Of a DNA stretch of 64,000 nucleotides, positions 9,132 to 37,369 are shown piece by piece (position 1 is the first letter of the stretch; each line of letters opens with the position of its first letter). The position numbers and the translations under genes are program-made. The notes beneath the pieces are model-generated. The model had not been told where the DNA came from. It ran no database searches and was given only the letters and a program-made list of their open reading frames with translations. The stretch comes from Candidatus Nanoarchaeia archaeon (GTDB lineage Archaea > Nanobdellota > Nanobdellia > WJKC01): NCBI GenBank assembly GCA_041653515.1, contig JBAZFG010000001.1, positions 74,332 through 138,331 on the forward strand. Direction: 5' to 3'.

Positions 9132-10076
9132 ATGATTAACATAATAATATTAATCCTATCACTTAGTGTCTTAATGTTCTCAAGCGGCAAGGCTGTTAAG
9201 TACGTGATGAAATTATCAAGAATTTTTGGCATTAGCGAAATGTCAGCTGGTTTCATTATTTTATCAGTGGCCACTTCACTGCCTGAATTAGTTGTTTCAA
9301 TTAATGCTGCGATGATTGGTGAGGGCGCGCTCGCTGTAGGCAACGTTCTTGGTTCAAATATTGCTAATATTACTATCATCCTTGGTTTAGCAGTGATTAT
9401 TAGTCGTAAGCGAAAAATTGTTTTCACCAAAAAAGTGTTTGATAACTTGATTGAATTCCTTTTTATTTCATCATTAATCCCATTGTTTATCTTGCAGACA
9501 GGCCATGTTAGTCTTGTGCTTGGCATAGTGCTTATCTCACTTTTCATTTTCTTCAGCTTTAAGACCCCTACAAAAGTTAAAGGCATTGAGGGCATTCATG
9601 TCGTGTTTAAGAAAGATAAGATATTAGTTATAATAAAATTCGTGATTGCCGTAATAATAGTAATTATTTCATCTAACTTTGTGGTTGATAGTAGTGTTAA
9701 TATTGCTGCGTTATTTTCAATCCCACCATCAATTATTGGCGCAACAGTTATCGCTCTGGGCACGTCACTGCCTGAATTAACCACTACTGTTCAGGCATTT
9801 AGGAAAAGATTATATAACGTTGGTTTAGGCAATGTTATTGGCAGTTGTATTACTAACCTGACTCTGATTCTTGGCATTACTTCAATATTTAATAATGTTC
9901 AATTAAACATTGTGTCTTTTACTTCACTTACTTTGTTTGCGATAATGGCTTCAATGATTACTTGGTATTTTGTCAGCACTGGCCGTCGCTTGGATAAACG
10001 CGAAGCATTCTTACTAATTGGTCTTTACACAATATTTATATTGCAAGAGCTTGGTTTCTCTTTGTTTGTATTATGA
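9132..10076 (+). CDS. CaCA-family cation/Ca2+ exchanger (YrbG-like) membrane protein
   Basis: Two alpha-repeats (GNVLGSNIANITIILG; GTSLPELTTTV) and ~10 TM helices. Confidence 0.7.
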   Translation: MINIIILILSLSVLMFSSGKAVKYVMKLSRIFGISEMSAGFIILSVATSLPELVVSINAAMIGEGALAVGNVLGSNIANITIILGLAVIISRKRKIVFTKKVFDNLIEFLFISSLIPLFILQTGHVSLVLGIVLISLFIFFSFKTPTKVKGIEGIHVVFKKDKILVIIKFVIAVIIVIISSNFVVDSSVNIAALFSIPPSIIGATVIALGTSLPELTTTVQAFRKRLYNVGLGNVIGSCITNLTLILGITSIFNNVQLNIVSFTSLTLFAIMASMITWYFVSTGRRLDKREAFLLIGLYTIFILQELGFSLFVL

Positions 10077-10930
10077 AAATAGGTCGAGTTAAACTTAATA
10101 GTAATTTATTGTTGGCGCCAATGCTTGGTTTCACAAATAGTGCTTTTAGGCACTTATGTCATGATTACGGTGCTGGCTTAGTTACTACTCCGTTAATCAA
10201 TGAGAACGCTGTTCTGAATAACCCTTTAATTATTGACGCGGTTCCGGGCGAAGCGGTTCAATTAATTGGCAGTGACCCAATTAAATTATCAAGAGCAGCT
10301 GTTATTGCCCAGCCTCATTGTGATTTAATTGACCTTAATTTTGGTTGCCCTGCTACTCGCGAAGCCGTTTGTGGGGTTGGTGCTATCCTCTTGAAGAAAC
10401 CTGCTTTGATTAAAAAATTAGTTAGCAGTGTTGTCAAGTCAGTTGATTGCCCAGTGACTGCTAAGATTCGCCTTGGCTTTGATAAGATTAACGTGATTAA
10501 AGTCGCTAAAGCAATTGAGTTTGCTGGCGCGTCAGCCATCACTGTTCACGCCCGGCTTGCTAGTCAGGATTATTCAGTGCCTGCTGACTGGCCTTGGATT
10601 AAGCGAGTTAAGGAATCAATCAGTATCCCTGTTATTGGCAACGGCGACGTTAAAAATCAGGCTGACGCTAATCAGATGATTAGTGAAACTAACTGTGATG
10701 CTGTGATGATTGGCCGGGCTGCTATTGGTAACCCGTTCATCTTTAAAGGGGTTGAGCCATCAGTCAAGGATCGTCGCATTGCTTTTAAGAAATTAGTCAG
10801 TTATGATTGTCCAATGCAGGACTTGAAATTACAAGCACTAAATTTTGTTAAAGGACTGCCCGGTGCTGCGCGAATAAAACAATCAATAATGAAAGCAAGT
10901 AATGAAAAAGAATTAATCAATTTCTTATAA
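10073..10930 (+). CDS. dus: tRNA-dihydrouridine synthase (Dus family)
   Basis: LAPMLGFTNSAFRHL… DLNFGCP … TIM-barrel Dus motifs. Confidence 0.8.
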   Translation: MKIGRVKLNSNLLLAPMLGFTNSAFRHLCHDYGAGLVTTPLINENAVLNNPLIIDAVPGEAVQLIGSDPIKLSRAAVIAQPHCDLIDLNFGCPATREAVCGVGAILLKKPALIKKLVSSVVKSVDCPVTAKIRLGFDKINVIKVAKAIEFAGASAITVHARLASQDYSVPADWPWIKRVKESISIPVIGNGDVKNQADANQMISETNCDAVMIGRAAIGNPFIFKGVEPSVKDRRIAFKKLVSYDCPMQDLKLQALNFVKGLPGAARIKQSIMKASNEKELINFL

Positions 10931-10931
10931 C

Positions 10932-11051
10932 CCCAATTATCCTTGGGCTTGTGTTATCATCCCAAGGCGGGGGACAGATTCCCCCTCCTCTAGGCTACTC
11001 CGCCCCTTTCTGCTTAATTATCCCAATTATCCTTGGGCTCGTGTTATCATC
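10932..11051 (+). repeat. 30-bp direct repeat (10932-10961 / 11022-11051, 1 mismatch) flanking a 60-bp GC-rich hairpin insert that contains the gattccccctc core
   Basis: cccaattatccttgggctYgtgttatcatc occurs twice. The insert carries a GGGGGA-cagat-TCCCCC hairpin. DR1 begins 1 nt after the dus stop; DR2 plus the insert encode the C-terminus of the minus-strand gene. Confidence 0.7.
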
Positions 11052-11888
11052 ATATATTACTGATGGCCCAATCAATACTATTGTTTTTTCAAGCATTACT
11101 TTATCTTTTAATTCTGCTTGCCTTGATAGTAAACCGTTGATGACCATGAATTTTTTTAACTCGCCTTTGAAGAATCTTGATTTAATTATTTCACCACTCA
11201 ATTCTTTTGTTTCTTTTAGCTCGTTACTTAAGATTGAGCCTCGCTCTAAGTCCTTCACATCGCAGTTCTTGAGCGAGACCCCAACCCGCGCGGGCCAATT
11301 AATCTCTTTATAATCAACGTCCATTGATTGCATGCTGTTTAATTGGGCTGGCCTGCCACCAGGCAATAAAACAAATTTATCCTTAACCTTGATTGTCCCG
11401 CCTTTAGTGAAACCAAGCGCTACTGTGCCAACATTCTTGATGTTAAAGAAGTGGTCAATGATGATTAATGGTTCATTTCCATACACTGGCTCAATCATCA
11501 GTAAATCATCTTTTAATTGTTTGATGTCATCATTATTGTTTATTATTCTAAAGTTATAATCAAGGCCAAAACTCTTGACTTGCTCAACTAAGTGTTGCTT
11601 GTCTAGCGGCACAATGAAACAGCCTTTCTTGCCCAGCAAGTCCAATAGTATTATTATCTCGCCAAAGAATTTGTCAACAGCGCTTAACTCAACCACGACG
11701 TAGTCAGTCATGTTAACTGCCTGAATCAGGGTCTTGATTTTTTCCGGAAAACCAATCGGCCTAACAATTGTTAGCACTGAATCAGTTTTCTTATAATGAA
11801 GAAATTCAAGGTCACTAACTGTTGCTTTATTGCCAAGCATTTTAGCTGTCTCGTCACTACCAATAAAACAAGCGCAAACATTTTTCAT
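10995..11888 (-). CDS. EF-Tu/aIF2-gamma-fold protein with degenerate (non-canonical) GTP-binding motifs
   Basis: Domain order is collinear with translational GTPases (G-like domain, beta-barrel domain II GTVALGFTKGGTIKV…, domain III). However, the P-loop GHVDHGKT is replaced by GSDETAKM and no NKxD is present. Confidence 0.5.
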   Translation of the reverse strand: MKNVCACFIGSDETAKMLGNKATVSDLEFLHYKKTDSVLTIVRPIGFPEKIKTLIQAVNMTDYVVVELSAVDKFFGEIIILLDLLGKKGCFIVPLDKQHLVEQVKSFGLDYNFRIINNNDDIKQLKDDLLMIEPVYGNEPLIIIDHFFNIKNVGTVALGFTKGGTIKVKDKFVLLPGGRPAQLNSMQSMDVDYKEINWPARVGVSLKNCDVKDLERGSILSNELKETKELSGEIIKSRFFKGELKKFMVINGLLSRQAELKDKVMLEKTIVLIGPSVIYDDNTSPRIIGIIKQKGAE

Positions 11889-17363: not shown

Positions 17364-17765
17364 TTAAGTTATTTTCTTAAATTCCTCAATCCTTTTTGAA
17401 TGTTCAATTTCCCAGTCTTTATCAGACTCATTAGGCTTATAGCATTCTATAAATTCAATATTATTACTTATTGTTCTTAATAATTCTCTTGCTTTTTTTG
17501 TTGGGTGCGAAGCACATATGATTACATCACATCCTTTTTCTTTTAATGGAATTAAATATTTCTTTAGCCAAGCAGGAGCGTCTCCAACGCTACAAATCCC
17601 TATTATTTTTCCATTATGGATAAAACTTAAACAAAAATCTTTTCTTATTTTTGGTCTCAAAACACAAATACTTGATTTAAAATATTCTTCCAGAATTTTT
17701 TTTATTGTCGTGCTTTTACCAATTTTTGCTTTACCTTCAAAACAGATTATTTTAGGGTTATCCAT
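17364..17765 (-). CDS. mini P-loop NTPase / NMP-kinase-like protein (133 aa)
   Basis: Walker A GKAKIGKST right after the start MDNPKIICFEG. The ORF-track N-terminal extension (MLLNLVLI x3) is read-through of the tandem repeat and is rejected. Confidence 0.5.
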   Translation of the reverse strand: MDNPKIICFEGKAKIGKSTTIKKILEEYFKSSICVLRPKIRKDFCLSFIHNGKIIGICSVGDAPAWLKKYLIPLKEKGCDVIICASHPTKKARELLRTISNNIEFIECYKPNESDKDWEIEHSKRIEEFKKIT

Positions 17766-17790
17766 AAATAAATCAATAAAATCACTTTTT

Positions 17791-17886
17791 AAAAGCATTA
17801 TTAATACTAAATTTAAAAGCATTATTAATACTAAATTTAAAAGCATTATTAATACTAAATTTAAAAGCATTATTAATACTAAAAAA
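17791..17886. repeat. 24-bp tandem repeat, ~3.75 copies (aaaagcattattaatactaaattt), immediately upstream of the P-loop gene
   Basis: Perfect head-to-tail copies at 17791, 17815 and 17839, with a partial copy at 17863. Confidence 0.9.
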
Positions 17887-17937
17887 ACATTTCTTTTATA
17901 CTTCGTATGATGTTACTATAATAAATAGCTCCAAAAG

Positions 17938-21454: not shown

Positions 21455-23114
21455 GTGTGTAGATATATTTTCCTTTTCCTTCTTTCCTAACAAAACCGTA
21501 GCGCTCGAATTGTATTATCTCACCTTCTTTGACTTTACTTGCGTAATCCTCACAAAGCCCTTTATCAATTAAGCCATCTGGTTTGAGCACGCTGCACTCA
21601 TGATTGCTCTTAGTCACGAATTGCACTTTCCTTATTTTATAAACCTCATCCTGGTCTTTAGCGTAAACCGCTCTGATTTCTTTGCCAACGCTCTTAACTT
21701 CAATATTCATTGAGTCCTTTAACCTAACCTGACATTCATTCTTGAGCAATTCAACATCACTTTCACTAATCCAGAAAGTATTAACCCCCTTCTCAATAAC
21801 ATAACTTCTGCTCTTATTAATCACGTGATGTAATGGTATTACCGCTTTCTTTTCCGGGCAACCACTTACTAATAATTTGACTGGGTCCTTAACAAAGAAG
21901 TAGCGCAGGCTCGCTGCGTCAATTAACCGACGGTTAATAGTGTATAATTTATCAACCGGGACTTTAACTTCATTCTCAGTTAAACCAATATCAAGCACGA
22001 ATTGCCTGACTGCTTCAGGCTTAATCCCCCTGCGCTTAAGACTCTGCAAACTCCACGTTCGAGGGTCATCCCAACCAGTGTACTCACCGCTTTTTACTTC
22101 GCGACTACTCTTGCTCTTACTAATCTTAACCCCTTCAACGCTAACTAATGAACTATGAACAATGACTGGTTCCTTCCAGCCCAAAATACCCCAGATTAAT
22201 CGCTCCATTTCATCCTCAATATACAAGTCCTTACCCCTAAGTATGTGCGTGATGCCAAGCAAGTGATCATCTACTGCCCAAGAGAATTCAAGCATTGGCC
22301 AAACACAATATTTAATCCCTGTCTTTGGGTGCGCTCGTTTGCTAATCCTAAGCAATACGCGGTCCCTAAACGCAGGGTTTTTGTGCTTCAAGTCAGTTTT
22401 TATTCTAACACAAGCCTCACCTTCATCATAACCCCCTGATAGCATCTTCTTCCATAAACGCTTATTCTCACTTACAGTATTATTCCTATGAAGACACTCC
22501 TTGCTCTTGGCTCGGTAATCCCTTATTAATTCAGTTGGGCACTCACAAACATAAGCCGCGCCTTTATCAATTAAGCTGGCCGCATACTTATAGAATAATT
22601 CCATTCGGTCTGACTTATAGATTATTGTTGGGTCAAACTTTACGCCGAGCCACTTCAAGCCCTGCGGTATCAACCTGTAAGCTGCTTTATCAATTGGCTT
22701 AGCTTCACTGCCAATAGTATCATCAATCACTAATATTAACTTACCTTTATACTTCTTAGCGTACTCATCATTCAATACTGCGGGCAATGCATTGCCAATG
22801 TGTAATGGCCCGCTCGGGAACGGCGCGAACCGCATGACTACTTTGCCTTTAATGCCTGGTAATTCTTTCAGGCCTTTGATTTCTTCTTTCTTCTCAAGCA
22901 ACTCAGGTGCTTGTGACATTAACTCATTAAGAATATTCTCAGGACTTAACTTATTAACTTGAGTAATAACCTCATTAATCCGTTTTATTAAGCCTTTAAT
23001 ATCCTTCTTTGATTCAGGCAATTCACCAATCACTTTAGGCATGACCGCGCCAAGAATTGCTTTGCCATGCTCATGAGCGTTCTTAAGTGCATACTTACGG
23101 ATAGTCTCATTCAT
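21447..23114 (-). CDS. gltX: glutamyl-tRNA synthetase, archaeal type
   Basis: HIGH motif FAPFPSGPLHIGNA and class I catalytic core; 555 aa. Confidence 0.9.
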   Translation of the reverse strand: MNETIRKYALKNAHEHGKAILGAVMPKVIGELPESKKDIKGLIKRINEVITQVNKLSPENILNELMSQAPELLEKKEEIKGLKELPGIKGKVVMRFAPFPSGPLHIGNALPAVLNDEYAKKYKGKLILVIDDTIGSEAKPIDKAAYRLIPQGLKWLGVKFDPTIIYKSDRMELFYKYAASLIDKGAAYVCECPTELIRDYRAKSKECLHRNNTVSENKRLWKKMLSGGYDEGEACVRIKTDLKHKNPAFRDRVLLRISKRAHPKTGIKYCVWPMLEFSWAVDDHLLGITHILRGKDLYIEDEMERLIWGILGWKEPVIVHSSLVSVEGVKISKSKSSREVKSGEYTGWDDPRTWSLQSLKRRGIKPEAVRQFVLDIGLTENEVKVPVDKLYTINRRLIDAASLRYFFVKDPVKLLVSGCPEKKAVIPLHHVINKSRSYVIEKGVNTFWISESDVELLKNECQVRLKDSMNIEVKSVGKEIRAVYAKDQDEVYKIRKVQFVTKSNHECSVLKPDGLIDKGLCEDYASKVKEGEIIQFERYGFVRKEGKGKYIYTHD

Positions 23115-23140
23115 AATAAAAAAGAGGAATTGTTTTGGAT

Positions 23141-24469
23141 TTATAAATCCAATTCTTGACCATCTTGAAGCAAGTGAACATCCTCGCCCAGTTTATACCC
23201 TAACTCATTAGCTAGTTTAACTGCACTGCTTAATTTCAGTAAGCCGCCATGACTTGGTATGTAATGCTGTGGCTTAATCATCTTCAAGAATTCCCGCATG
23301 CCTTCTCGGGCAACGTGACCACTAACGTGGACATCATCAAATATTCTTACTCCATGGCTTTTCAAGCTCTTAATTAACCGACTCTTGTTAGCTTCATTAA
23401 TCGGGCTTGGAATAGTCTCACTGCAGAAAACAACAATGTCATCTGGCAGTAATTTAAAACTCATTGTATCCTGAGATAACCTGACTAACATACTATTCGG
23501 CTCGCCTTGGTGGCCTGTCATTATTAAGAAATAATTACCCCTGCCATTGCGCTCTATTTCTTTAAACATCTTATCATTCTGCCTTGGGTGAACTAATATT
23601 GCTTCTTTAGTTATGTTAACCAAACCAACATTCTCAGCCGCAGTCACGTAATTAAACATGCTTCGACCAAGCAATACTGGCGTTCGTTTCATCTTAATAG
23701 CTGTTTTTATTAGTGTTGTTAACCTTGCTATATGACTAGCAAAAGTAGTGGTTATTACTGCTTTATTTTTTGAGTCAATAAAACTAAAAGTGTCTTCAAT
23801 CATGTTATTAAAAACACTTTCACTGTAAGTCCTGCCATCACGGTCAACCCTAGTTGAATCAGTGATTAAAGCTTTAACGCCTTTAGCAGCTAACTCCCTT
23901 AATCTTTTGTAATCAGTTTTCTGGCCTAACACTGGGTGTTCATCAAACTTAAAGTCAACTGCGTACAATAAATCACCTTCCGATGTATGTAAACAACTCA
24001 TCACTGTTTGAGGAATACTATGCGTAGCGTAGATGAATTCAACGCTTAATTTATCACTTATCTTGTAAGTGCTCTTAGCATTCAATTGAACTAAGTGCTT
24101 GAATAAACGGCTTTTCTTGCCTAATTTCTGTTTTAGTACTTCAAGTGTGAAAGCAGTCGCGATAACTGGTACGTTATATTTCTCAGCTATCTTATCAGCG
24201 CCCGCAACGTGGTCGAGGTGCGCGTGGTCAATAACTATTGCCTTGACTTGCTTGCCATACTTCTTGAAAAAAGCCCTATCATCAGGGATTACTTCCTCAA
24301 CATATAATGCTTCAGGAGGTAATTCCTCAGGATTAACACCTCTTTCTTGCAGTCTGATTAATTGGTCGACTGCTACACCAATATCAAATATCACTGTTTC
24401 ATTTCCGACAGTTACTGCGGTCATGTTCCTACCGAACTCGCTGTAACCACCTATTGCGTGTATTTTCAT
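23141..24469 (-). CDS. rnj: beta-CASP metallo-beta-lactamase ribonuclease (archaeal RNase J-like)
   Basis: HxHxDH motif (VIDHAHLDHVAG) and beta-CASP C-terminal His motifs; 442 aa. Confidence 0.8.
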   Translation of the reverse strand: MKIHAIGGYSEFGRNMTAVTVGNETVIFDIGVAVDQLIRLQERGVNPEELPPEALYVEEVIPDDRAFFKKYGKQVKAIVIDHAHLDHVAGADKIAEKYNVPVIATAFTLEVLKQKLGKKSRLFKHLVQLNAKSTYKISDKLSVEFIYATHSIPQTVMSCLHTSEGDLLYAVDFKFDEHPVLGQKTDYKRLRELAAKGVKALITDSTRVDRDGRTYSESVFNNMIEDTFSFIDSKNKAVITTTFASHIARLTTLIKTAIKMKRTPVLLGRSMFNYVTAAENVGLVNITKEAILVHPRQNDKMFKEIERNGRGNYFLIMTGHQGEPNSMLVRLSQDTMSFKLLPDDIVVFCSETIPSPINEANKSRLIKSLKSHGVRIFDDVHVSGHVAREGMREFLKMIKPQHYIPSHGGLLKLSSAVKLANELGYKLGEDVHLLQDGQELDL

Positions 24470-24585
24470 TTTAATATATCACCTTCATATTCTTTTATTA
24501 TTTAATAAGGTTTAGAATTTTTTCTCAAAACCCGTCTTATGGAAAAAGAATGCAATAACCTGTTTATAAGCTTTTTCATAAAAAT

Positions 24586-25086
24586 TTAATGGTTATTAAT
24601 AGATGGAACTGTTCCGTCATCAACTATTATTGAACTAATGTAATCATTTATTACTTTATAGTATAATTCGAGTTTTTTCTGTTTTTCAATACAATCATCG
24701 CATAACTTATTAGTGCAGGCGTCAATTATTGGCTGATAGGAATCTACAATCTTATCATATAATCTTTTGTAATTAACTAAGAATTCATTCTTGTTCTTTA
24801 TGTGCTCATTAGCTTTCCCACCATTATTAATATCTAAATGGTCTTTTATTATTTTATAAAGCACTTCATCAACGTTGGATAACTCATTAAATTCATAACA
24901 TAATTCATTTAGTGTTGTTAAGCAAATATCAAGCGTGTCAAACCTATCAAAACCTTTTATAGACTGACATTGCTTAACCCTTTTATAAGATTCTTTGTAA
25001 TTAATTATAAAATTCGCTATTGATAACCTTGCCTCGCCTTTCTTAAGCTCTATTCTGCCAAAAGGATTTTTATTCCTTGGTTTCAT
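24586..25086 (-). CDS. hypothetical Cys-containing protein (166 aa)
   Basis: ORF only. Confidence 0.35.
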   Translation of the reverse strand: MKPRNKNPFGRIELKKGEARLSIANFIINYKESYKRVKQCQSIKGFDRFDTLDICLTTLNELCYEFNELSNVDEVLYKIIKDHLDINNGGKANEHIKNKNEFLVNYKRLYDKIVDSYQPIIDACTNKLCDDCIEKQKKLELYYKVINDYISSIIVDDGTVPSINNH

Positions 25087-25158
25087 TAAGAGATTTTATT
25101 ATTATAACATTATAAAGATCATTGTAATTCAGTTCTCATTTTATCCCTGAACGCGCGA

Positions 25159-25340
25159 ATCATTAATGGGTGTATTAGTGGGTTCTTATCATACTCGACC
25201 GCAGGGAGAAGTATCCCCCTTCAGTCTTGAGAAACCCTGATTCCCCCTCTACGTTTATTTTGTCTTAATGGCGTTACTGATTAATTCCTTGAATTTTCTT
25301 ATCATTAGTGGGTGGATTAATGGGTTCTTGTCGTAATTGA
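25159..25340 (+). repeat. ~40-bp imperfect direct repeat (25159-25198 / 25301-25340, ~85% identity) flanking a GC-rich core (25199-25254) that contains ctgattccccctc
   Basis: The copy inside the gene encodes …YDKNPLIHPLMI of the radical-SAM/ArcS protein. The distal copy encodes the same peptide followed by an alternative tail, RAFRDKMRTELQ*. Confidence 0.65.
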
Positions 25341-26514
25341 TTTTATTCATTAATTGCTCGTCGCATAAATCTACTAATTTTATCCCCAGTTCCTTGCACG
25401 CGTTCTTCAAGCACTGACCTGACTCACTCTTTGGTTTATAATAAGAGAATACTTGCTCGTACTTATGAGCTGTTAAGTAATCCTTGACCCGTTGAGTGTT
25501 AATCCTAACATACTCTTTCATTACTTCTGGCGTCTCGTTCCGCTCATCCCAGTCGTAAGCGTTGAATGGGTACTTGTCAGCGAACTCAATTGGGATAACC
25601 CCTGGGTTGCTGATAACAATAATATGAGTATTCTTATACCAATCAAAACCAGTAATAGCGCGCCTGATTGAAACATGCGTCCGACTATTATAATAAGGCT
25701 TCTTCTTACTGCAAGGCAAGAACAAAGCAATAGTTTTGTTCAACGGCTTATTATACAAACGAACCAAGTAATCCTGCCAAACGTTAAAGTGAGGGTGAGT
25801 CACGAACTCAACCCCAACGCCATTTAAATCAGCCTTCTTCTCTAACGGGAATTTAGGCACGAACGCATAATTATTCGGCTCTAACTGAACGCTCTCATAC
25901 TTTTTTGTTCGCTTAAAAAACTCTTGCTCACTAATAGGCTTCCACTCACCTGCCACCCATAAATCAAACAAGCCTGACCTGGCGTGAGGAAAAGTATTAA
26001 TCAACACTATTTCATTACTATACTCGCGCGCTAAGGCAACGCTTTTATCCAATAACCCATCATAATCAAACGGGTGATTAATCAATAAGTATGACTTAAC
26101 TTTGAAGCCATGAGCGTGAACTCGCTCACAAGCCCTCTTATAAGCCTCAACCGTGATGCCCTTGTTTAATTTCTTCAATACTTCATTATCACCAGCCTCA
26201 AGCCCAATCGCCACTACTAATTTGACACCTTTGAACAAAGAGAGTTTCTCGTCAGTCACGTACTCTGGTCTTGACTCAATATACAAGACTCGACCCTGCA
26301 TTACTTTAGCCACATGAGTCTGGAATTTAATTGGGAATTGACAGTCATCCAATAATGAGCCACTGCAGAATAATTTAACATCACCCTCACCACTCTCCCT
26401 ATCAAACCTGTCAATTAACTCATTAGCACTAATATTAACATCATCCTTACCCCAACCACAAAACAAACACTTACCCCAAGAGCACTTGCCGGCGTTTAAC
26501 ACAATCTCTTTCAT
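25255..26514 (-). CDS. radical-SAM domain protein fused to an ArcS-type catalytic domain (PC-X3-KPY-X2-S-X2-H); putative archaeosine (G+) synthesis enzyme
   Basis: N-terminal Cys cluster CSWGKCLFC (Cx4Cx2C) and C-terminal LPCSKKKPYYNSRTH matching the ArcS signature. Divergent from arcTGT. Start placed at Met 26514 (MKEIVLNAGKC) to avoid overlap with tgtA. Confidence 0.6.
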   Translation of the reverse strand: MKEIVLNAGKCSWGKCLFCGWGKDDVNISANELIDRFDRESGEGDVKLFCSGSLLDDCQFPIKFQTHVAKVMQGRVLYIESRPEYVTDEKLSLFKGVKLVVAIGLEAGDNEVLKKLNKGITVEAYKRACERVHAHGFKVKSYLLINHPFDYDGLLDKSVALAREYSNEIVLINTFPHARSGLFDLWVAGEWKPISEQEFFKRTKKYESVQLEPNNYAFVPKFPLEKKADLNGVGVEFVTHPHFNVWQDYLVRLYNKPLNKTIALFLPCSKKKPYYNSRTHVSIRRAITGFDWYKNTHIIVISNPGVIPIEFADKYPFNAYDWDERNETPEVMKEYVRINTQRVKDYLTAHKYEQVFSYYKPKSESGQCLKNACKELGIKLVDLCDEQLMNKINYDKNPLIHPLMIRKFKELISNAIKTK

Positions 26515-26566
26515 AAAAAAATGGAATCCGTAACACTTTTTAAATACCTTGCGTATCACTTTGTTC

Positions 26567-28216
26567 ATGTCATTTGAAATCAAGGACCACGACGGCCTCG
26601 GCCGATTAGGCGTACTGACTGTTAACAATAAGTCAATCACTACACCTAACATTGCGGTAGTCATTAACCCTAATGACTTAACCATCCCCCCTGAAGAAAT
26701 GATGCGTGACTTCGGGGTTGATTTAATTATCACTAACGCCTACATTATTAAAAACTCAAAAAAAGCCAAGGACATTGAAGCTAAAGGATTGCACGAATAC
26801 CTTAATTTCCCCGGCATTATTTACACTGACTCAGGCACTTACCAGATGTTTAGCAAGGGCGGTGCTGCCATCACTAACGAGGAAACACTCGCTTACCAAA
26901 CTAAAATTGGGAGTGATATCCACACGCCACTTGATTTATTCACACTGCCAGATGATGACAGGGCAACCGCAGTCAGCAAACTTACTGAAACAATCAAGCG
27001 GATTAAAGCCATAAGAACAACTAATTTCTCAGCCCCAATACAAGGCGGCTCGTTCATGGACCTGCGAGCTAAAGCCTGCAAAGAACTAGCCAAGGTTAAA
27101 CCAACTGTTTACCCAATTGGCGGTATCGTACCATTAATGATTAGCTATGATTTTAAACGATTAATTGAAGTAATCCTTGAGTGCAAAAAACACTTACCCT
27201 TAAACACACCTGTTCACGCTTTCGGCGCTGGTCACCCGCTTATCTTTGCCTTACTCGCTTACGCAGGAGTTGACTTATTTGACAGCGCTAGTTACGCGTT
27301 ATACGCCAAGGAAGCTAAGTACATCACTGAGACTGGCACAATGAAAGTGGATGAGTTAGTCTCACTGCCTTGTAATTGCCCTATTTGCGCTAAGCATAAG
27401 CCAAGCGATTTGCGCGACGTTGGCTTACTAGCCCGACATAACTTGCACGCCTTAATGAGAGAAGTAAGGTTAGTTAGACAAGCCATTCAGCAAGACCGAT
27501 TATTTGAATTAGTAATGTCAAGAGCGATGAGCCACCCAAACGTTTACTTTGCGTTTAAACGATTGCTTGAGTATAAAGAATTAATCAGCGAGCATAACCC
27601 TATTCGTAAGAGAAACGCTTTATTCTGGACTGGAGCTTTGAGTAGTGAGCGACCTGAGATTAATTATGCTAATAACCAACTTAAATTACTTAAACTAAAA
27701 AAAGCACCCAAACCATTAAAACTAGTTTACCCTTTTGGTCAGAACGTTGGCTGGAGTATTGATTATTCAGTAAAAAATTATGATGACTTAGCAACCCTTC
27801 GATTAATGGCTGATTACCAATTCGGTGCTGGCGCTGGACTAAAATTAATCCCTGACAATGTCACCATTATTAAAAGCCGTAACCAGCGATTACATGAAGT
27901 ATTACTTAAAAATGAATTATTATTCATCGTCCGCGCCCGTGATGGTTACTTTGCACTACATAAAGCTGGCGCGAAACGATTAAAACAATACTTAAAAAAA
28001 GTGGTCGCGCCAGATGAATATAAAGAGTTTTACCAAAAAGGCGGCGACGTGTTCGCCAAACACGTGCTTAAAGCAAACAACATTAAGCCGCGCGAGGAAG
28101 TCGGTGTTTATTGCGGCAAAGAATTAGTCGGGGTCGGCGAGGCAACACTATCAAGCCGTGAGATGATTGTTTTTGATAAAGGCGTGGCTGTTAAGACACG
28201 TGAAGGAATAAAATAA
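26567..28216 (+). CDS. tgtA: archaeosine tRNA-guanine transglycosylase (arcTGT) with C-terminal PUA domain
   Basis: MSFEIKDHDGLGRLG N-terminus, Zn site CNCPICAKH, ~550 aa. Confidence 0.9.
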   Translation: MSFEIKDHDGLGRLGVLTVNNKSITTPNIAVVINPNDLTIPPEEMMRDFGVDLIITNAYIIKNSKKAKDIEAKGLHEYLNFPGIIYTDSGTYQMFSKGGAAITNEETLAYQTKIGSDIHTPLDLFTLPDDDRATAVSKLTETIKRIKAIRTTNFSAPIQGGSFMDLRAKACKELAKVKPTVYPIGGIVPLMISYDFKRLIEVILECKKHLPLNTPVHAFGAGHPLIFALLAYAGVDLFDSASYALYAKEAKYITETGTMKVDELVSLPCNCPICAKHKPSDLRDVGLLARHNLHALMREVRLVRQAIQQDRLFELVMSRAMSHPNVYFAFKRLLEYKELISEHNPIRKRNALFWTGALSSERPEINYANNQLKLLKLKKAPKPLKLVYPFGQNVGWSIDYSVKNYDDLATLRLMADYQFGAGAGLKLIPDNVTIIKSRNQRLHEVLLKNELLFIVRARDGYFALHKAGAKRLKQYLKKVVAPDEYKEFYQKGGDVFAKHVLKANNIKPREEVGVYCGKELVGVGEATLSSREMIVFDKGVAVKTREGIK

Positions 28217-28698: not shown

Positions 28699-28769
28699 GC
28701 GTTCGTAGTCTAGTGGTAGGATCTCAGCCTTCCAAGCTGATGACCTGGGTTCGAATCCCAGCGAGCGCA
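28699..28769 (+). tRNA. tRNA-Gly (anticodon UCC)
   Basis: Cloverleaf read by eye: acceptor GCGTTCG/CGAGCGC, anticodon loop CUUCCAA, T-arm GGGTTCGAATCCC; no encoded CCA. Confidence 0.85.
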
Positions 28770-28850
28770 TCAAAGATGCGAACTGATGGGCTCTGTGCGA
28801 GACTGAGCTGAAAGCGAAGAGCAAAGCGCACAGCAATCCCAGCAGTCGCA
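28754..28850 (+). repeat. partial duplication of the tRNA-Gly 3' end (aatcccagcgagcgca / aatcccagcagtcgca) flanking a 65-bp GC-rich hairpin insert
   Basis: 13-14 of 16 nt identical. The insert (28770-28834) has a CTGTGCG…CGCACAG inverted repeat and is unusually GC-rich for this genome. Confidence 0.45.
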
Positions 28851-28912
28851 GACACTTGCTCATTCTTGTTTGATAGCAATCTTTAATAAGTATTAGTTGT
28901 TAGTATTCTTTT

Positions 28913-33713: not shown

Positions 33714-33893
33714 ATTATTCTTTTTTTAGTTTAGTAAACTATTTAAAACTATCTTTGCGTTCAATTGTTCACCACTGTGTCACCCCAATAATACAGTGAT
33801 GGGAAGCCATTCGTGGCTTCCCACTGTTTTATATTTATTTACCACTATTAGTGGTGCTAATGTTTATAAAGTGATTATTTACTAATTCATTTA

Positions 33894-37057: not shown

Positions 37058-37297
37058 ATGAATGTTGGTTTTAAAATCGCTGGCGTTATCTGTTTAGTCC
37101 TAGGTGTTATTGGCGCCTTAGGTGTTTTAGGAACAACTAACCCATTGAGCATTATTAGTGACCCATTATTTAACCTAACTAAATTATTCCTCACTGACAG
37201 CGGCTCATTCTTCCTATGGGTCTTTATCATCGTGCTTGGCTTAACGCTCGTTGGCCCAAGTAAAGGTTTTATTAAAGGCATGGCTACGCGAAAGTAA
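37058..37297 (+). CDS. small membrane protein (79 aa)
   Basis: 2 TM helices. The stop codon lies inside DR1 of the downstream element. Confidence 0.4.
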   Translation: MNVGFKIAGVICLVLGVIGALGVLGTTNPLSIISDPLFNLTKLFLTDSGSFFLWVFIIVLGLTLVGPSKGFIKGMATRK

Positions 37298-37369
37298 GCT
37301 TTATTAAAACAAAGGGGCTGTGCCCCTCTTGACTCCCCCTTTCTTTGAAAGTAAGCTTTATTAAAACAA
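37290..37369 (+). repeat. perfect 23-bp direct repeat (37290-37312 / 37347-37369) flanking a 34-bp GC-rich hairpin insert containing cttgactccccct
   Basis: gaaagtaagctttattaaaacaa occurs twice and includes the stop codon of the upstream gene. The insert has an AGGGGC-tgt-GCCCCT hairpin. Confidence 0.75.

Follow-up and report, generated by a model that had tools for sequence, protein, structure and literature searches.

A 142-nt segment with a second gene end and GC-rich hairpins at the 3′ end of an archaeosine-pathway gene in a nanoarchaeal genome

A displaced gene end behind a radical-SAM/DUF5591 gene

The sequence analysed here, called the window, is a 64,000-nt stretch of the low-GC (36%) core genome of an uncultured Candidatus Nanoarchaeia MAG; all coordinates refer to it. 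Its minus strand carries, in gene order, glutamyl-tRNA synthetase, RNase J, a 166-aa hypothetical protein and a radical-SAM/DUF5591 fusion. By exact-sequence look-up the fusion protein is MFA5405845.1, from a Candidatus Nanoarchaeia MAG with WC307_ locus tags, on a contig of 232,779 nt. The same radical-SAM plus DUF5591 architecture occurs in 229 homologues. According to Pfam, DUF5591 is the archaeosine synthase C-terminal domain, and the gene is assigned to the archaeosine pathway. The 3′ end of this gene contains the element described below, E1, which is flanked by syntenic housekeeping genes. The 166-aa neighbour is syntenic in two orthologous loci (L001 and L002), so nothing further has been inserted at the locus. 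The features are as follows.

24586-25086, minus strand: hypothetical protein of 166 aa (MFA5405844.1), downstream neighbour of the fusion gene
25119-25193, minus strand: distal copy of the gene end, original but no longer translated, YDKNPLIHPLMIRAFRDKMRTELQ followed by TGA (from comparison with L001)
25194-25335, minus strand: E1 insertion, 142 nt, made up of gene-end copy, new tail, stop and GC-rich core (from alignments with L001)
25194-25254, minus strand: GC-rich core, 61 nt, 56% GC, with the motif TAGAGGGGGAATC common to other family members
25197-25226, minus strand: hairpin 2, GACUG-A-AGGGGGA-UACU-UCUCCCU-G-CGGUC (from folding)
25229-25246, minus strand: hairpin 1, weak and G-U-rich, GGGGAAU-CAGG-GUUUCUC (from folding; on the gene-sense strand only)
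25255-25296, minus strand: new C-terminal tail, KFKELISNAIKTK, and TAA stop (ORF list and translation)
25297-25335, minus strand: proximal (inserted) gene-end copy, encoding YDKNPLIHPLMIR (from translation)
25255-26514, minus strand: radical-SAM (RaSEA-like)/DUF5591 fusion gene, 419 aa (ORF list; Pfam PF04055 and PF17884)
26549-28216, plus strand: archaeosine tRNA-guanine transglycosylase gene, divergent to and upstream of the fusion gene

The fusion gene ends on the minus strand in ...NYDKNPLIHPLMIRKFKELISNAIKTK, followed by TAA-ACG-TAG: a second in-frame stop, TAG, lies two codons past TAA at the start of the core. Both gene-end copies encode YDKNPLIHPLMIR. Read through, the proximal copy gives KINYDKNPLIHPLMIRKFKELISNAIKTK, stop, T, stop, and the distal copy gives stop, RGILLPAVEYDKNPLIHPLMIRAFRDKMRTELQ, stop, in agreement with the translations of an earlier sequence-only reading. 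The distal copy lies in the +1 frame relative to the fusion gene, with no start codon between the upstream in-frame TGA and the copy.

A repeat search delimits a direct repeat of 64 nt with 72% identity (25135-25198 versus 25277-25340, spacing 142). The stretch coding for YDKNPLIHPLMIR is identical at 31 of 39 nt (~79%) in the two copies, and the longest identical run that they share is 9 nt (AAGAACCCA). The best 39-nt window between them has 32 matches; 300 dinucleotide shuffles of positions 24500-26000 gave 26 at most, never 32. The repeat and the displaced tail are thus confirmed as real. The 40-bp diverged duplication of the sequence-only reading stands, with its identity, given there as ~85%, slightly too high. 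The core is not repeated after the distal copy, as a simple tandem duplication would have it.

Synteny extends to both sides at L001, the closest orthologous locus, whose protein, P0001, has 87% amino-acid identity. L001 lacks exactly 142 nt, corresponding to 25194-25335, and both pairwise and global alignments show this as a single clean gap whose boundaries are ambiguous by 2 nt (TA). The gene end of L001 is uninterrupted, running to ...RALRDKMRIELQ and a stop, and the C-terminus of P0001, ...NYDKNPLIHPLMIRALRDKMRIELQ, is a tail of the distal type. At its start the distal copy matches L001 in 35 of 35 nt, and in its tail in 37 of 42; close to the insertion site the identity is 58/60, against ~80% for DNA over the gene as a whole. 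Because L001 is free of the 142 nt and ends like the distal copy, the distal copy is the native gene end, displaced downstream. The 142 nt are either an insertion in the window lineage or a precise loss in L001. The fusion protein is now terminated by the upstream copy, a new tail of 13-14 codons and a stop. The sequence-only reading had taken the distal copy for the displaced original end and credited the element with 14 new codons and a stop; the empty site and the compared C-termini of orthologues bear out both statements.

The distal copy is also identical at 33-37 of 39 nt to L001, L002, L006 and L011, and across lineages the synonymous sites of the native 35-nt segment have changed unusually little. 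With a degenerate pattern coding for NPLIHPLMI, 17 metagenome loci were retrieved, five of them true orthologues; a second gene-end copy is absent from all five.

The segment between the copies, which contains ctgattccccctc, peaks at 47-52% GC, well above the window (36%) and the neighbouring sequence (20-35%). Hairpin 2 has a 12-bp stem, built from 5 outer base pairs, a 1x1 A/G mismatch and an AGGGGGA/UCUCCCU inner stem, which is closed by a 4-nt loop. Three nucleotides separate its end from the distal copy, and the hairpin is preceded by a TGA in frame with that copy. On the sense strand the core folds at −23.3 kcal/mol (z −2.4); as several pairs are G-U, the antisense strand reaches no more than −10.1 to −11.2 kcal/mol. 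Apart from the core hairpins no structure is conspicuous: neither strand of the 231-nt region as a whole is more stable than shuffled sequence (z −0.3). Each half of the core is single-copy in the window, even at 3 mismatches.

Each AGGGGGA unit lies directly 3′ of a stop codon in the frame of the adjoining gene-end copy.

No known RNA was recognized: Rfam 15 has no match in the window at the gathering score, nor in 25100-25400 when the limit is relaxed to E<=10, and the sole tRNA that ARAGORN detects in the window is tRNA-Gly at 28699, outside E1. The hairpins were also considered as a native 3′ UTR of the gene in other lineages. This was rejected, as L001-L006, L011 and L021-L024 have no GC-rich hairpin after the gene and carry AT-rich sequence instead.

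Repeat-hairpin-repeat units at other loci

Searching the window for GC-rich islands with local direct repeats revealed two further units, E2 and E3; a fourth, E4, is found in a related genome.

10927-10961 and 11017-11051, minus strand: direct repeats of E2 flanking a GC-rich core (unit 10927-11051; repeat and hairpin scans)
37290-37312 and 37347-37369, plus strand: identical 23-nt repeats of E3, GAAAGTAAGCTTTATTAAAACAA (unit 37290-37369)
L031:8893-9116, related genome: E4, a 28-nt near-perfect palindrome between two identical 84-nt repeats

The E2 repeats are 35 nt long and 91% identical, and their inner 31 nt differ at one synonymous position. Its hairpin (10964-10990, GAGG-A-GGGGGA-AUCUG-UCCCCC-G-CCUU) has the architecture of hairpin 2 of E1. 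The unit lies within the 3′ end of an EF-Tu-domain-2-like gene (10995-11888, minus strand) that converges on a Dus gene. In a relative with 85% identity the hairpin occupies the same site, directly after the TAG stop, and of the second repeat no more than 5-6 nt remain; the hairpin is absent at the loci of more distant relatives. The polarity of E2 differs from that of E1: its gene-proximal copy is native-like, against the foreign-looking one of E1.

The repeats of E3 flank a 34-nt core, AGGGGCTGTGCCCCTCTTGACTCCCCCTTTCTTT, and span the stop codon of the gene at 37058-37297 as well as the TATA-like box of the next gene. At the same site relatives have spacers of 31 and 42 nt, with neither core nor repeat, that is, an empty site. 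Subtraction of the 57-nt element from the E3 spacer leaves 35 nt, within the 31-42 nt of the relatives. On this evidence the units are lineage-specific and insertion-polymorphic. The 84-nt repeats of E4 include the 3′ end of a 5S rRNA gene; both E3 and E4 are situated outside coding sequence. Over the four units the flanking duplications measure 39-64 nt (E1), 31-35 nt (E2), 23 nt (E3) and 84 nt (E4).

We scanned the window and ~75 kb of related archaeal loci for G4-loop-C4 patterns with a stem of at least 6 bp (L033 and L034 were screened separately). The sole matches are E2, E3, E4 and the E2 orthologue, and three of these four have long flanking repeats. E1, found separately, falls outside this pattern through its imperfect C-run, UCUCCC. 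The cores share motifs of the AGGGGGARTC type in one orientation, with pairwise p values of 0.0005-0.03 against shuffles. E1 and E2 further have a common hairpin design, namely an outer stem, a 1x1 A/G mismatch and a GGGGGA inner stem. The comparison was made by explicit hairpin and repeat scans, as five short sequences hold little information for a covariance model. Altogether, E1 is best grouped with the other units as one of several tiny hairpin elements, rich in GC, of Nanoarchaeia genomes, a grouping that consists of five loci (E2 being counted in two lineages) with core similarity over 10-15 nt only.

Origin of the insert and of its new tail

The proximal and distal copies differ at 8 of 39 nt, and all eight differences are synonymous. 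Random placement of 8 substitutions gave an all-synonymous outcome in 0 of 200,000 trials (P<5e-6); the proximal copy must therefore have a coding history separate from that of the native one. Its identity to the sampled orthologues is much the same for all of them (29-33/39). The new tail is nearest to tails of the L021/L006 type (33/49-50), the native distal tail being farther away (27/48). L021 ends in RKFKENISKELI, which is similar to the new tail at both the protein and the DNA level. Through its resemblance to the tails of other lineages, the new tail RKFKELISNAIKTK looks like part of a xenologous gene end, and the simplest reading of the inserted copy would be just that, a gene end whose lineage has not been sampled. 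No donor lineage for E1 turned up in exact-match scans of viral, genome and metagenome collections.

We favour the reading that E1 is a MITE-like hairpin of the kind that inserts with long target duplication, and that a foreign gene end came in with it; our confidence in it is divided about equally for and against. Hairpin units may enter at widely staggered breaks, or through template switching, and a long stretch of target would be duplicated in the process. Such a duplication would keep both neighbours functional in a very compact genome, the upstream copy retaining the gene end and stop and the downstream copy the start of the next unit. In the case of E1, the unit of gene end and hairpins most likely formed in a related nanoarchaeon and would have been brought in by recombination, either Campbell-type or one-sided, within the homologous gene end. 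Formation elsewhere would account for an upstream copy that looks foreign and a downstream copy that is native from its first base. The net effect would be the exchange of the last 12 residues, RAFRDKMRTELQ, for RKFKELISNAIKTK, together with a 3′ UTR rich in hairpins and an old end left behind. The swapped 12-residue tail lies beyond the Pfam match to DUF5591. The long duplications that other units make of their own targets favour insertion with long target duplication over classical site-specific integration.

Such integration is nonetheless the first alternative to be weighed. E1 could be the relic of a site-specific integrative element, a virus or plasmid with a tyrosine or serine integrase, whose attP mimicked the gene end and of which nearly everything was deleted, leaving attL, ~60 nt and attR. 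Such an element would leave foreign DNA between direct repeats (here of 64 nt) at the 3′ end of a gene, and L001 has the empty site; the element-borne copy preserves the reading frame and provides a family-like tail; and, like good att sites, the target varies very little in nucleotide sequence from lineage to lineage. Against this, the insert has no ORF and is non-coding apart from the copied gene end, and E1 has neither an integrase nor kb-scale cargo. A Pfam scan of ~54 ORFs of the window gave no integrase, transposase, recombinase or reverse transcriptase. As for an identical core of attL and attR, the longest run common to the copies is only 9 nt, and the junction can be placed only to within 2 nt (TA).

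No viral or plasmid relative came to light either. Exact scans of IMG/VR returned nothing, a single palindrome match met in the search for a viral origin is due to chance, and blastn against phage and plasmid collections gave nothing relevant; exact scans with the E1 core gave one chance match among genome contigs, in a Bacteroidota genome with no flanking similarity, and none in metagenomes. These viral, genome, metagenome and phage/plasmid searches thus found no second E1 core, larger relative or autonomous partner. Finally, the three other loci with a tiny hairpin at different targets would demand four independent decays to a remnant of 28-61 nt. We consider the integrative relic unlikely. 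The sequence-only reading had suggested that the element carried its own att-like copy of the gene end. Its premise, a diverged copy of that end, is retained in view of the eight synonymous differences; the att role is unproven for a 142-nt segment with no ORF, integrase or larger relative.

A second alternative, also improbable in our view, has the gene end duplicated in situ when the hairpin inserted, the upstream copy and tail then diverging fast and the downstream copy being held by a nucleotide-level function. The repeats of E2, E3 and E4 are near-identical, as for fresh target duplications. Many lineages show little synonymous change in the native 35 nt, so the contrast between the proximal and distal copies could partly reflect release from constraint after such a duplication; and 8 synonymous changes in 13 codons are not far above the divergence implied by the ~80% DNA identity of this lineage to L001. 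However, the tail has diverged at about half of its positions and changed in length by 2 codons, compared with 87% identity to P0001 in the remaining protein. The resemblance of the new tail to those of other lineages at the DNA level and the lack of the whole insert in L001 also speak against duplication in place.

Thirdly, the event may have involved no mobile element. A break between ...AAT and TAT... would have been repaired by copying an imported foreign gene end with its 3′ UTR hairpins, followed by end-joining, as in homology-facilitated illegitimate recombination or templated insertion. It would fit this that the start of the insert coincides exactly with that of the homology to the gene, that it ends 3 nt past the hairpin, as a fragment at a transcript or DNA end might, and that the flanks are otherwise undisturbed. 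But GC-rich hairpins are missing after the gene at every orthologous locus sampled, and the related hairpins of the same layout at unrelated loci suggest that the hairpin itself is the moving part. We hold this for quite unlikely.

A function of the insert in RNA or translation is very improbable. A bulge-helix-bulge (BHB) intron or a translational bypass ("hop") would restore the ancestral tail, with both tails or only the old one being made. Excision of exactly 142 nt does bring back the ancestral frame, the distal ORF is unbroken, stop codons lie directly 5′ of both hairpin units and the hairpins are stable on the sense strand only. The BHB motif was sought exhaustively, as a 4-bp helix between two 3-nt bulges with outer helices, formed by both boundaries; no candidate has an intron length of 142 (E1) or 90 (E2), and the AT-rich matches of other lengths that did appear are consistent with chance. 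The absent Rfam match and the fold of the whole region, no better than shuffles, also count against it, as do E3 and E4, which lie outside coding sequence. Besides, recoding is not needed, since an ordinary family-like tail and a stop are already in place in the upstream copy.

Least likely of all, and close to negligible, is an assembly artefact in the form of a chimeric join of gene ends from two strains: the copies do look like alleles of different lineages, but neither allele is related to the 61-nt core, two more units of the same layout lie on the same contig, and an independent Logan assembly is identical over the whole region. Misassembly of the E1 region, on which the sequence-only reading had made its observation depend, is thereby unlikely. 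The Logan contigs L030 (window 22267-26364) and L029 (8225-17817), from run SRR18595300, are 100% identical to the window and cover E1 and a second element of the same kind. They possibly derive from the same reads, being an independent assembly rather than independent sequencing; their identity makes an artefact of the assembler very unlikely.

A diversity-generating retroelement was rejected separately: the mismatches (T>C, C>T, A>C, T>A, C>A) run in both directions and are not adenine-specific, and the window ORFs include no reverse transcriptase.

Returning to insertion with long target duplication, a bolder proposal extends it to all four units. E1-E4 could be minimal mobile elements of Nanoarchaeia that have not been described before: GC-rich hairpins of 28-61 nt that insert at gene ends with duplications of 23-84 bp and swap tails between lineages with no element-encoded enzyme. 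We put this forward tentatively, as a possibility with the balance against it. As the units travel with one gene-end copy, they could transplant a C-terminal tail into the orthologue of another lineage. An autonomous partner, if any, would be a protein-coding element ending in inverted repeats of the AAGGAGGGG type.

The effect of E1 on the protein is probably small, as 12 poorly conserved C-terminal residues of a tRNA-modification enzyme are exchanged. E1 is nevertheless a clean natural example of non-disruptive replacement of a gene end, in which the earlier and the later state are both preserved. From the family context it would seem that archaeal genomes of ultra-small size, having almost no intergenic space, tolerate small hairpin inserts only with a long target duplication. 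If the hairpins are truly mobile, their mode of insertion, with variable duplications of 23-84 bp and no linked enzyme, is one so far described only for bacterial restriction-modification units, and such tiny elements would make it far easier to study. In practice, stranded gene ends can mislead gene callers and the detectors of pseudogenes and frameshifts in MAG annotation.

Comparison with known systems

Integrative elements target the 3′ ends of tRNA genes and some protein genes and carry a replacement end, the attP mimic. E1 resembles them in supplying a homologous 3′ end that leaves the gene intact and in displacing the original end as a partial duplicate; unlike them, it is only 142 nt long, with no integrase or cargo, and the same hairpin occurs at unrelated targets.

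Two parallels come from fungal mitochondria, whose elements can insert into a gene 3′ end with a foreign C-terminal segment (Allomyces atp6) and which also carry mobile GC-rich double-hairpin elements. In common with E1, the Allomyces case presents a hybrid gene with a foreign in-frame C-terminus and the resident segment left downstream, and the GC-rich hairpin elements reside in an AT-rich, compact genome. Unlike Allomyces, in another domain of life, E1 has no endonuclease ORF.

REP/RAYT and IS200/IS605-derived hairpin elements are characterized by a conserved tetranucleotide 5′ of an imperfect palindrome and by a Y1 transposase in the genome; GTAG, CTAG and CAAG precede the G-runs of our units. 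No target duplication is expected for those elements, in contrast to the long ones seen here, and the ORFs of the 64-kb window include no Y1 transposase. MITEs make target duplications of 2-10 bp that are fixed per family, and they are reported to be dense in some DPANN genomes (PMC11602168). E1-E4 share with MITEs and small hairpin repeats a short, non-coding, GC-rich sequence with palindromic or TIR-like structure, diverged copies and a location at gene ends and in spacers. There are three such hairpin units in 64 kb, whose shared motifs extend over 10-15 nt only. They differ from MITEs in cores shorter than most and in duplications of 23-84 bp that vary with the locus (23, 31-35, 39-64 and 84 nt). 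The fixed 2-10 bp of MITEs and the integrase and kb-sized element of site-specific integration both fail to fit four tiny hairpins at four unrelated targets.

Long, variable direct repeats are made by IS1634 and IS1549, which are autonomous bacterial IS with a DDE transposase. The same holds for the repeats of IS1630 (PMC2853133). All three are a precedent for target duplications of long and variable length; unlike at such elements, the window displays no DDE transposase and no matching terminal repeats.

The closest parallel to our preferred reading is found in bacterial restriction-modification units, which are known to insert with long target duplication and whose repeats may overlap gene 3′ ends (Furuta, Abe and Kobayashi 2010, PMC2853133). 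Those cases are kb-sized units, and no archaeal case survived the screen (PMC2853133). E1 differs in being no restriction-modification gene unit and in its upstream repeat, which is diverged and apparently foreign; our units consist of a non-coding hairpin of 28-61 nt in a DPANN archaeon. The likeness lies in the insertion itself. As in the bacterial cases, E1 is absent from a related genome and has a repeat of more than 30 bp that matches a single-copy target in the relative, with no mobility gene. E4 (84 nt) fits the same description, and so does E3, apart from a repeat (23 nt) below the 30-bp cut-off. The E1 family and the bacterial inserts also have in common that no transposase or integrase lies in the insert and that the length of the repeat varies from locus to locus.

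Repeat-hairpin-repeat units in and beside genes

Three further units, each built of repeats around a GC-rich hairpin, were likened to E1, the 142-nt insertion in the 3' end of the radical-SAM/DUF5591 gene.

Window 10927-11051: E2, the second unit; its host gene, whose 3' end it occupies, is EF-Tu-domain-like (10995-11888, minus strand).
Window 37290-37369: E3, the third unit, with identical 23-nt repeats around a GC-rich core of 34 nt.
L031:8893-9116: E4, the fourth unit, on the related Nanoarchaeia contig Ga0180433_10000318.

The host gene of E2 is convergent with a Dus gene (10073-10930, plus strand). The E2 hairpin is also present in an 85%-identical relative (L027/L025), immediately 3' of the TAG stop codon there; 21-22 nt between two G-runs are missing from that copy, as is the greater part of the second repeat. 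Where the relative has this TAG, the window has CAG, so that the host reading frame is lengthened by QKGAE and reaches into the element.

The repeats of E3 cover the stop codon of one gene and a TATA-like box of the following one, and the E3 sites are empty in relatives. Since the host protein is on record for NCBI and JGI and absent for Logan, an independent assembly of run SRR18595300, the latter may be broken at the perfect E3 repeat.

The core of E4 is a near-perfect palindrome of 28 nt, CTCTAAGGAGGGGTTTCCCCTCCTTGAG, flanked by identical 84-nt repeats that take in the 3'-terminal ~30 nt of the 5S rRNA gene. Just 3' of E4 (L031:9094-9156), two identical copies of a 27-nt repeat, ATCTTGCAGTTCCATTCCTTAAGGAAC, lie 9 nt apart, each forming a small hairpin.

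Candidate small RNAs and a tandem array

Upstream of the 5S rRNA gene, in both the window genome and L031, lies a two-hairpin small-RNA candidate, CACUGUGUCACCCCAAUAAUACAGUG followed by GGGAAGCCA-UUCG-UGGCUUCCC (window 33765-33830, conserved at L031:8715-8775). Its second stem has apparent compensatory changes between the two, GGAGUGGC/GCCACUCC, as judged by eye. A GC-rich (56-58%) stretch at 28770-28860, immediately 3' of tRNA-Gly(UCC) (28699-28769), contains CUGA and UGAUG-like boxes; a C/D-box sRNA is one possible identity, a tRNA trailer another. Neither candidate has an Rfam match at gathering score.

Separately, a 24-nt unit, TTTAAAAGCATTATTAATACTAAA, is repeated in tandem at 17764-17883 (four perfect copies and a degenerate one), overlapping the reading frames 17364-17870 (minus strand) and 17518-17910 (plus strand).

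The gene-end segment at the E1 site and the archaeosine neighbourhood

Window 25155-25193 and 25336-25360: gene-end segment GAYAARAACCCACTAATACACCCAYTAATGAT, also found in orthologues.

Around the E1 insertion site, identity to the closest orthologous locus is 58/60, against about 80% gene-wide. Within the segment, synonymous sites are kept across lineages with a protein identity of only about 69%, and a 9-nt direct repeat, CCCAYTAAT, recurs with 12-nt spacing. The segment may be a nucleotide-level signal, either a recombination site or a regulator site; alternatively, its conservation may reflect no more than codon usage in the PLI/PLMI peptide repeat.

The gene itself encodes a single 419-aa protein that fuses radical-SAM (RaSEA-like) and DUF5591 (ArcS C-terminal) domains, and it adjoins, in divergent orientation, the gene of an archaeosine tRNA-guanine transglycosylase (window 25255-28216). 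This fusion is common to >200 homologues from DPANN and other archaea.
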